From Escherichia phage HMD-6: a stretch of 64,000 nucleotides of DNA. Within the stretch, counting starts at the first letter, position 1; each line of letters starts with the position of its first letter. The notes below the pieces were generated by a model, which searched no databases, had not been told where the DNA came from, and saw only the letters and a program-made list of their open reading frames with translations. A program made the translations under genes and the position numbers. The DNA lies in sequence record PQ505080.1; one strand, written 5' to 3'. This document shows, piece by piece, positions 59,700 to 59,980 of this stretch.

Positions 59700-59980
59700 T
59701 GTTTTCGTGTATCATGATGAATATCCCATTTAAAGATGAGTTTGATGGCTTTATCTCCGGATGCTTTGAAACAGGGTTCGGAGAAGTCTGAGTTCCCCTT
59801 AGAGGGCTTGATAGTGCACCACACTTAAAATGGTAGGGGCAGCCAGCACATGACGATGTGACCCCAGCCAACCTGTAATAAGGTCGAGCCAGAGCGCGGT
59901 AATGGGTATCTGGTAACCCACTTGTTGGGTCTTGCTGGTCCAGGACGCTGGGCAAGTCGCAGGGAATACCACCCTGCGGC
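59700..59980. ncRNA. GC-rich structured island, candidate ncRNA (function unknown)
   Basis: Three mutually overlapping minus-strand ORFs in track (typical artefact of GC-rich non-coding sequence); extensive complementarity. Confidence 0.3.

Follow-up and report, generated by a model that had tools for sequence, protein, structure and literature searches.

A predicted structured RNA motif with compensatory base changes shared by rV5-like, T4-like, N4-like and jumbo phages

Among the small RNAs of phages, the species 1 and 2 RNAs of T4 (rnaC and rnaD) are made early and are encoded within the tRNA gene cluster. Small self-cleaving ribozymes also occur in phages, among them the HDV-like 'theta' ribozymes, which adjoin phage tRNAs, and restriction to phages, proximity to tRNA genes, the lack of a consistent gene partner and occasional tandem copies are typical of phage hammerhead, twister, pistol, hatchet and HDV-like ribozymes. 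Phage RNA decoys, such as pseudo-ToxI antitoxin mimics and RNA anti-CRISPRs, copy host RNA. Junction-type riboswitch aptamers, for example those for purines and TPP, combine several helices in a compact junction whose joining nucleotides are nearly invariant and whose stems covary. Here, we describe a GC-rich island in a 64,000-nucleotide stretch (the window) of Escherichia phage HMD-6, an rV5-like Vequintavirus that shares 99.4% identity with ECP32 and EduardKellenberger/Bas59 over 59400-60480. Sequence comparison points to a conserved, covarying RNA motif in this island, with no assigned function, which links rV5-like, T4-like, N4-like and jumbo phages.

The motif behaves like a new, previously uncatalogued family within the phage-encoded structured non-coding RNAs. 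Like the products of rnaC and rnaD it would be a small phage RNA, yet it is unrelated to them (covariance model R2, run with filters off, reached at most 8.5 bits across T4 69500-74500), and in T4 it sits about 6 kb away from these genes, between denV and vs.8. It resembles riboswitch aptamers in the form of its junction, its 5' UTR position in T4-like phages and its tandem copies; unlike riboswitches, it has no Rfam match and no coherent regulon, and for many copies either no gene follows or a promoter bypasses the motif. With phage ribozymes it shares its size, restriction to phages, proximity to tRNAs, unrelated flanking genes and occasional tandem arrangement, whereas its topology does not fit hammerhead or HDV-like folds in a hand comparison, and no covariance model of the known self-cleaving ribozyme classes matched it. 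The likeness to phage RNA decoys lies in a non-coding RNA of virulent phages with a proposed action by binding a host protein; in contrast to these decoys, the motif resembles no host sequence among 5,426 E. coli genomes and 185,579 species genomes.

An Rfam scan had been suggested as a check by an earlier sequence-only reading of this DNA, and it returned nothing for the motif: searched both at gathering thresholds and by E value, Rfam 15 (4227 models) gave no hit in 59350-60480 even at E values up to 10, the whole-window scan recovered only tRNAs and a group I intron, all elsewhere in the window, and no family was assigned to the motif at T4-like loci or at an N4-like locus. Neither ARAGORN nor Rfam called a tRNA or tmRNA in 59700-59980, and the literature, searched by sequence, gene names and topic, yielded no account of the motif. 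Several likenesses, namely to the 16S 530-loop (GCGGUAAU), RNase P (GUGCGGUAA), the HDV ribozyme (CGGUAAUGG) and, at 59790, the E. coli type I-E CRISPR repeat (GAGTTCCCC), are short and were judged to be at chance level, as were those to GAGCC of group II intron domain V, the SRP Alu domain and the tRNA-Tyr anticodon loop.

The same reading had described 59700-59980 as a GC-rich island that ends at a strong promoter and is overlapped by three minus-strand open reading frames (59677-60106), taken to be artefacts. The composition and the promoter are borne out, and the three reading frames are present as described. The GC content of 59700-59980 is 0.509, whereas the window averages 0.426; this is the 98.9th percentile among windows of the same size. 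For the conserved part, 59786-59984, it is 0.563 (99.8th percentile). The promoter at 59985-60013 is the top-scoring promoter-like site within 57000-64000, and its position, including the -35 element, is kept in a second, distant clade of Vequintavirinae (clade B). The features of the locus, with base pairs and RNA motifs given as predicted, are as follows.

59677-59991, minus strand: open reading frame of 104 aa
59687-59715, plus strand: candidate sigma-70 promoter TTTACA-17-TATCAT, 10/12 consensus positions, transcript start possible near 59722
59714-59791, plus strand: possible small open reading frame of 25 aa, MMNIPFKDEFDGFISGCFETGFGEV, separate from the RNA motif, coding uncertain
59755-59783, plus strand: clade-specific hairpin CUCCGGA...UUCGGAG, from the minimum free energy fold and the alignment; clade B has a promoter at the same place
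59795-59835, plus strand: 5' accessory module, kept across Vequintavirinae only, which also holds AAAAUGGUA
59796-59806, plus strand: accessory hairpin CCCU/AGGG in the 5' module
59799-60017, minus strand: open reading frame of 72 aa
59805-59810, plus strand: GGCUUG in the 5' module, which could pair with CGAGCC of the core
59813-59825, plus strand: accessory hairpin AGUG/CACU in the 5' module
59825-60106, minus strand: open reading frame of 93 aa
59836-59865, plus strand: P1, GGGG (59836-59839) with CCCC (59862-59865), 5' internal loop CAGCCAG
59847-59860, plus strand: inner hairpin of P1, CACAU-GACG-AUGUG
59867-59870, plus strand: 5' strand of P3, GCCA, with partners at 59903 and 59905-59907
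59871-59884, plus strand: P2 hairpin, ACCU/AGGU closing a loop of 6 nt (GUAAUA), covariance-model hit (68 bits), also found by RNAalifold
59885-59899, plus strand: P4, C59885-G59899, GA/G internal loop, G59888-C59897, C59889-G59896, variable loop
59900-59907, plus strand: joining strand UAA (59900-59902), then the 3' strand of P3, consisting of U59903, bulged G59904 and GGU (59905-59907)
59916-59930, plus strand: clade-specific 3' hairpin ACCCA/UGGGU, deleted in the relative L071
59931-59956, plus strand: clade-specific 3' hairpin CUUGC...GCAAG with inner CCAG-GACG-CUGG
59959-59979, plus strand: clade-specific 3' hairpin CGCAGGG/CCCUGCG, with no U-tract behind it
59985-60013, plus strand: near-consensus sigma-70 promoter TTGACA-17-TAAAAT, 11/12 positions with TG before the -10 element, serving the next gene
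60042-60380, plus strand: downstream gene of 112 aa, phrog_3330 (no assigned function), followed by a promoter and a tRNA array from 60477

The predicted core (59836-59907, plus strand) consists of the hairpin P1, which in the window is a helix of 4 bp with a one-A offset, followed by a three-way junction of P3, P2 and P4 with a UAA joining strand and a bulged nucleotide that is G in every canonical copy and A in L098. The structure model was derived from an alignment of 40, later 50, distinct sequences on the core. Across the 50 distinct sequences, 96% of cells are paired, and 55 cells are changed on both sides compared with 14.8 ± 2.8 after shuffling (0 of 500 shuffles reach 55), figures to be read with the fact that the alignment (A4) was fitted to the model and that related sequences inflate the shuffle statistics. 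In slid controls, in which the partners were moved by 1-3 columns, 21-52% of cells were paired. The case for P3, which neither RNAfold nor RNAalifold predicts, consists of the covariation counts: all four pairs are doubly changed across families, the first pair (-1,+1) occurs as A-U, U-A, C-G, U-G and G-C and is never broken, and the Karamvirus-like copies have UGG/CCA in place of GCC/GGU. For P1, a perfect 5-bp partner of the 5 nt abutting P3 lies 8-60 nt upstream in 40 of 53 unique sequences, against a shuffled expectation of 5.9 ± 2.1, and 12 distinct helix sequences occur. P2 shows a single A-U to G-C double change, its stem having been fixed in the search patterns so that its invariance is partly built in. 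In P4, the third pair changes from C-G to U-A on both sides in L081, L094, L100 and the second copy of L036, with L094 and L100 being near-identical to each other; model R2, which holds the final P4 register, outscores R1 on divergent members, and a scan that left P4 free found variation in its loop and in one stem pair. RNAalifold independently predicts P2 and the two inner pairs of P4. The near-invariance of the core as a whole is overstated, as most sequences were retrieved by fixed patterns.

Judged from these alignments, the fold has been kept by compensatory changes. The folding energy is unremarkable (z = -1.78 over the full island, -0.07 over the motif by itself), and we call the island structured on account of the covariation across phage families and not of its energy. 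On the same basis, the small structured RNA suggested by the sequence-only reading finds support, on the plus strand: the G-U pairs and the shared orientation of the motif and neighbouring tRNA genes (12 of 12 loci) indicate that the plus strand is the folded one. Three other pairings were set aside. The first P4 register considered (CGAGC with GYGCG around an A·G mismatch) was dropped, as the C-G to U-A double changes fit the other register. An extension of P1 in the window (UGGU:GCCA) cannot form in clade B, whereas P3 is compensated there. P0 (GGCUUG:CGAGCC), which both RNAfold and RNAalifold predict for Vequintavirinae, does not occur in other families and, being invariant, is uninformative; it is possibly a clade-specific alternative to P4 within Vequintavirinae.

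Upstream of the core, the 5' accessory module is nearly invariant between the two Vequintavirinae clades, whose P1 interiors differ, and is missing from T4-like and N4-like copies. Its 16-nt element GGNCTNNATAGTGCAC recurs at 58281. This element is all that another island in the window (58200-58500) has in common with the one studied here, and homology between the two islands was rejected. A candidate second copy of the motif in the window, at 52186, scored 21.6 bits, lies antisense within a 427-aa open reading frame and was judged to be a chance match.

Comparative analysis, the other check that had been suggested, revealed that the motif is common to T4-like, N4-like and jumbo phages. A sensitive blastn search with 59697-59990 against 50,697 phage records matched 976 records, 118 of them Vequintavirus matched over the full length; the other approximately 860 match 59864-59908 only, with 85-93% identity, and all those inspected are T4-like, with the match upstream of vs.8. 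The T4-like carriers include Tequatrovirus, Jiaodavirus, Dhakavirus, Moonvirus and others, and the match falls in an unannotated gap. The copy in T4 itself maps to the complementary strand, at about 64854-64903 in the interval from denV to vs.8, and the annotation extends vs.8 across it; at the T4-like loci examined, with 3 exceptions, a stop in the vs.8 frame separates the motif from the conserved start codon. In the T4-like records examined, the motif is always placed in the vs.8 5' UTR, with the end of the core 61-71 nt before the start codon. Copy number is one per genome or a tandem pair, tandem copies being found in some Karamvirus-like genomes. Pattern scans of IMG/VR and metagenomes added clade B, Pylas-like N4 podoviruses, unclassified phage contigs and jumbo-phage contigs of 230 and 360 kb. 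In the N4-like phages, an extra stem encloses the motif within about 1 kb of unannotated non-coding DNA beside tRNA genes, and no open reading frame of at least 120 aa begins within 300 nt downstream; in L077 and L081, the motif lies directly 3' of tRNAs with no open reading frame behind it. The strict pattern had no hits in 185,579 bacterial and archaeal genomes, and blastn found no match in 5,426 E. coli genomes. Bacterial loci returned by a looser pattern were rejected as chance (80 scored, best 19 bits, compared with at least 36 bits for true members), and the one 'plasmid' record carrying the motif, which at 137.6 kb matches an rV5-like phage genome in size, is probably a mis-filed phage. 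Within the collections searched, the core is kept across unrelated virulent phage families and absent from the bacterial genomes.

Transcription of the island could start at the candidate promoter at 59687-59715, the sequence of which is retained in close relatives. In clade B, TTGACA-16-TATACT (11/12 positions with TG) stands directly upstream of the conserved RNA and a second near-consensus promoter immediately 3' of it. A promoter of its own, as expected for a small-RNA gene, is thus indicated by consensus matches, of 11/12 positions in clade B and 10/12 in the window. No terminator-like site was found between 59791 and 60042, and no intrinsic terminator follows the island, which means that the RNA may be the 5' part of a longer mRNA; terminator-like hairpins with U-runs, read by eye, occur 35-140 nt past the motif in L033, L034, L044 and L069. 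The suggestion that the island acts as an attenuator finds no support in the window, where the stretch from the island to the next gene is free of intrinsic terminators; for a leader-peptide attenuator in particular, a possible small open reading frame is present, but the terminator is missing from 59791-60042 and a promoter intervenes. A long leader, formed by read-through from the promoter-like site at 59687-59715, is possible. The genes behind the motif are unrelated among carriers (vs.8, phrog_3330, a tail protein, an HNH endonuclease and a terminase), with the motif always in the same orientation as the downstream genes. Vs.8 shows weak P-loop similarity.

Based on these comparisons, we propose the following hypothetical scenario, to which we assign about an even chance, in which the motif is a stand-alone early small RNA whose conserved junction binds a partner conserved among hosts: (i) the island would be a non-coding RNA locus on the plus strand of an rV5-like phage, its core belonging to a widespread phage RNA family; (ii) an RNA of roughly 200-260 nt would be made early and alone, by transcription from the 59687-59715 promoter or by read-through, and the GC-rich hairpins ahead of the 59985 promoter would stabilise it; (iii) the RNA would fold with P1 stacked on a small three-way junction in which P3 encloses P2, P4, the UAA and the bulged G; (iv) the near-invariant junction and loop nucleotides would offer a surface recognised by a partner that the hosts share, either a host protein or a small molecule. 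Such a surface would imply that the RNA works by binding, be it as a decoy, a sponge or a sensor, and not through base-pairing or coding. We infer the step from conserved fold to partner binding. The neighbourhood of tRNA genes and the tmRNA-like tag of the N4-like phages point to translation, RNA metabolism or defence against attacks on these as the process concerned. The island is bypassed by the strong promoter at 59985, a point against its controlling the downstream gene; together with the absence of a coherent set of downstream genes, this favours a stand-alone RNA in this phage over control of the gene that follows. The motif would function as an autonomous module in many transcript settings. 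The layout in the T4-likes, the most numerous carriers, in which the motif lies 61-71 nt before the vs.8 start and is sometimes in tandem, looks cis-regulatory and counts against a stand-alone RNA.

More tentatively, and with less than an even chance, the motif could represent a new functional class of RNA, present in most virulent enterobacterial myoviruses, T4 included, and in some podoviruses and jumbo phages, and acting as a new self-cleaving ribozyme, a new aptamer or a protein decoy. For an aptamer, the ligand might be a host metabolite or signal; a decoy might neutralise a factor of the host that acts on tRNA or translation, an anti-defence RNA linked to the phage tRNAs being one example. 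T4, which is among the best-studied genomes, holds between denV and vs.8 a predicted RNA fold of about 80 nt with a near-invariant core that is not annotated as such. Conservation of the fold in unrelated virulent phages and its absence from the bacteria searched would imply an interaction with the host cell that is both shared and important. With the motif defined, gene calls can be corrected in roughly a thousand deposited genomes and a covariance model for a new RNA family can be seeded, and its presence in T4 and in Bas59 of the BASEL collection offers a tractable route to what may be a new ribozyme, sensor or anti-host RNA.

The reading most directly suggested by the T4-like phages is a cis-acting leader or riboswitch, in which the junction would serve as an aptamer, with a metabolite, a second messenger or a protein as its ligand, and the forming or melting of P3 would switch downstream structures and thereby read-through, translation or stability of the carrying mRNA, the targets being the phrog_3330 gene and tRNA array here and the vs.8-to-regB operon in T4. 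The constant position in the vs.8 5' UTR, the Karamvirus-like tandem copies and the invariable co-orientation with downstream genes speak for it, as do two potential alternative pairings: in L033, a terminator-like hairpin about 35 nt past P3, followed by a Shine-Dalgarno sequence and an open reading frame, has a 5' half (GCCCG) with 5-nt complementarity to the P3 3' strand UGGGU (both read by eye), and in the window UGGGU could pair with the downstream ACCCA instead. However, the alternative pairing with GCCCN shows no covariation in T4-likes, and the window has neither a terminator nor another recognisable expression platform. Of the features of a riboswitch, a structured, covarying aptamer-like element was found, whereas functionally related downstream genes were not; a strong bypass promoter lies between motif and gene in both Vequintavirinae clades, and the copies in N4-like phages, L077 and L081 lie amid tRNAs with no open reading frame behind them. 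We consider cis-regulation a serious rival, though clearly less probable than a stand-alone RNA. In a role in RNA processing, which appears slightly less probable still, the motif would be a new self-cleaving ribozyme or a structure for a host RNase, and polycistronic early transcripts and tRNA precursors would be cut there, at one fixed site. Such a role would account for a small element with invariant junction nucleotides and helices that vary in sequence and length, and for its phage-restricted occurrence next to tRNA genes, with no consistent gene partner and occasional tandems. Against this, no Rfam 15 ribozyme model matched at the permissive threshold, a cleavage site cannot be inferred from the sequence, and the conserved stem sequence of P2 and P4 suits recognition by a protein or through tertiary contacts at least as well as catalysis.

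That the motif acts at the level of DNA, as a single-strand hairpin signal, recombination hotspot or homing site, or is recently transferred DNA with no RNA function, is very improbable. Very different phages share the core at 85-93% identity, which could result from horizontal transfer, and N4-like phages use DNA hairpins as promoters. The flanks are, however, wholly diverged, and yet double changes in P1, P3 and P4 preserve the pairing, which indicates long-term selection on the fold; G-U pairs would be A-C mismatches on the opposite strand, and the motif occurs as a single copy or tandem pair per genome, always in the transcribed orientation. Least probable of all, and barely credible, is that one of the overlapping open reading frames on either strand is a genuine small gene. 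Annotators of related genomes did call differing frames here: NHEP1 carries a 72-aa minus-strand CDS, in conflict with Bas59, in which a 36-aa plus-strand frame is annotated and the remainder of the island is empty. Yet the minus-strand frames are shortened to 61-64 aa or lost in the close relatives L048 and L071, are missing from clade B and have no match in PHROGs or Pfam, in agreement with their earlier interpretation as artefacts. Relatives carry indels of +2, +3 and -10 nt within the island, and in T4-likes the common core falls in an untranslated region. Over the conserved RNA, no frame is retained in relatives or matches a protein family, and by these comparisons the island is without a protein-coding role.

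The first ~90 nt of the island, 5' of the conserved RNA, hold a plus-strand frame on which the sequence-only reading was silent. The 36-aa version of this frame (59681-59791) matches phrog_6828 with an E value of 1.2e-8, a point in favour of coding, but it stops at 59791, upstream of the conserved RNA. The frame at 59681/59714-59791 may be a real micro-ORF. The window copy is not preceded by a Shine-Dalgarno sequence; in clade B, its KDEFDGF core recurs in an 8-aa open reading frame that has one.

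In the T4-like phages, the RNA motif lies in the 5' UTR of vs.8. Two features were noted here:

T4 (NC_000866), 64253-64912: vs.8, with an annotated start that falls within the RNA motif
T4-like loci, about 35-50 nt 3' of the motif (e.g. 1568-1580 in the T4-like locus L004): conserved hairpin GCCA-NGGAA-UGGC

The annotated start lengthens the T4 gene by approximately 40 codons. A conserved MRTFLTG forms the start of vs.8 in other T4-likes, and stop codons are present upstream of it in most of the T4-like loci examined. The vs.8 start in the T4 annotation was probably placed too far upstream. 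The loop of the hairpin exposes a GGA immediately 5' of the Shine-Dalgarno sequence of vs.8, a form that CsrA binding sites take; the hairpin is absent from the clade of HMD-6.

In the Vequintavirinae, a short reading frame precedes the conserved RNA:

59714-59791, plus strand: short ORF of 25 aa, terminating just ahead of the conserved RNA
L061 (a locus of the second, distant clade B), 4552-4578: version of only 8 aa (MKDEFDGF), preceded by a good Shine-Dalgarno sequence

The version in the related phage locus L068 differs from the 25-aa frame by two synonymous changes (GGG to GGA and TTC to TTT), and the product of the frame could be a micro-protein or else a leader peptide.

A search with the covariance model of the motif returned a weak second match in the window at 52186-52234 (plus strand; 21.6 bits, E ~1e-4). 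Several of its pairs are broken, and it lies antisense within a 427-aa minus-strand ORF; it is probably a chance match. The motif was also found, with 95.9% identity, in the PLSDB entry CP057073.1 (E. coli, cattle faeces), which is filed as a non-mobilizable plasmid and whose length of 137,565 bp is that of an rV5-like phage genome; what was deposited as a plasmid is probably the genome of a phage.

Near an N4-like copy of the motif, on a human-gut contig (L050) with about 91% identity to Klebsiella phage Pylas across most of 611 nt, a further RNA candidate was detected:

L050, 7252-7339: tmRNA-like sequence approximately 350 nt downstream of the motif; its counterpart lies in the unannotated Pylas interval 66769-67776

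This segment matches the Rfam families tmRNA_permuted (33.7 bits, E 1.3e-4, below the gathering score of 47) and tmRNA (E 1e-3, likewise sub-threshold). The matches enclose a tag-like frame, GCA AAC GAT GAT GTT GTT CTG ATG GCT GCT TAA, with the translation ANDDVVLMAA*, which resembles the E. coli SsrA tag. ARAGORN recovered no tRNA-like domain here. The segment may represent an unannotated phage tmRNA-like gene.

Upstream in the window, two features precede the GC-rich island that holds the motif (island 2, 59700-59980):

58010-58095: inverted-repeat array of about four units GTCCG...CGGAC(AC), spaced by about 20 nt
58200-58500: 'first' GC-rich island (island 1), with GC up to 0.55

The array, located just downstream of a gene called a transcriptional regulator or replication initiator in relatives, resembles an array of operators or iterons. 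Island 1 is confined to Vequintavirus (118 records), its annotation in relatives is missing or inconsistent, and it gave no relevant Rfam match. The two islands have a 16-nt element in common, GGCCTCCATAGTGCAC at 58281 versus GGGCTTGATAGTGCAC at 59804.

Downstream, the window contains tRNA calls and an intron:

60757-60847: tRNA-Ser (ARAGORN), below the Rfam threshold and without annotation in the close relative Bas59
60946-61044: 99-nt tRNA called by ARAGORN with a four-base anticodon (atcc)
62393-62821: first exon ORF of a terminase-like frame
62809-63087: group I intron (Rfam RF00028, 81.4 bits)

The 99-nt call scores only 35.5 bits with Rfam and is annotated as tRNA-Lys in Bas59; it is a miscall or else a tRNA that is unusually long or contains an intron. 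The group I intron splits a terminase-large-subunit-like frame, whose first exon ORF begins with MSKIYGPCSEKQKMILENDADILVIGGAAGSGKS.
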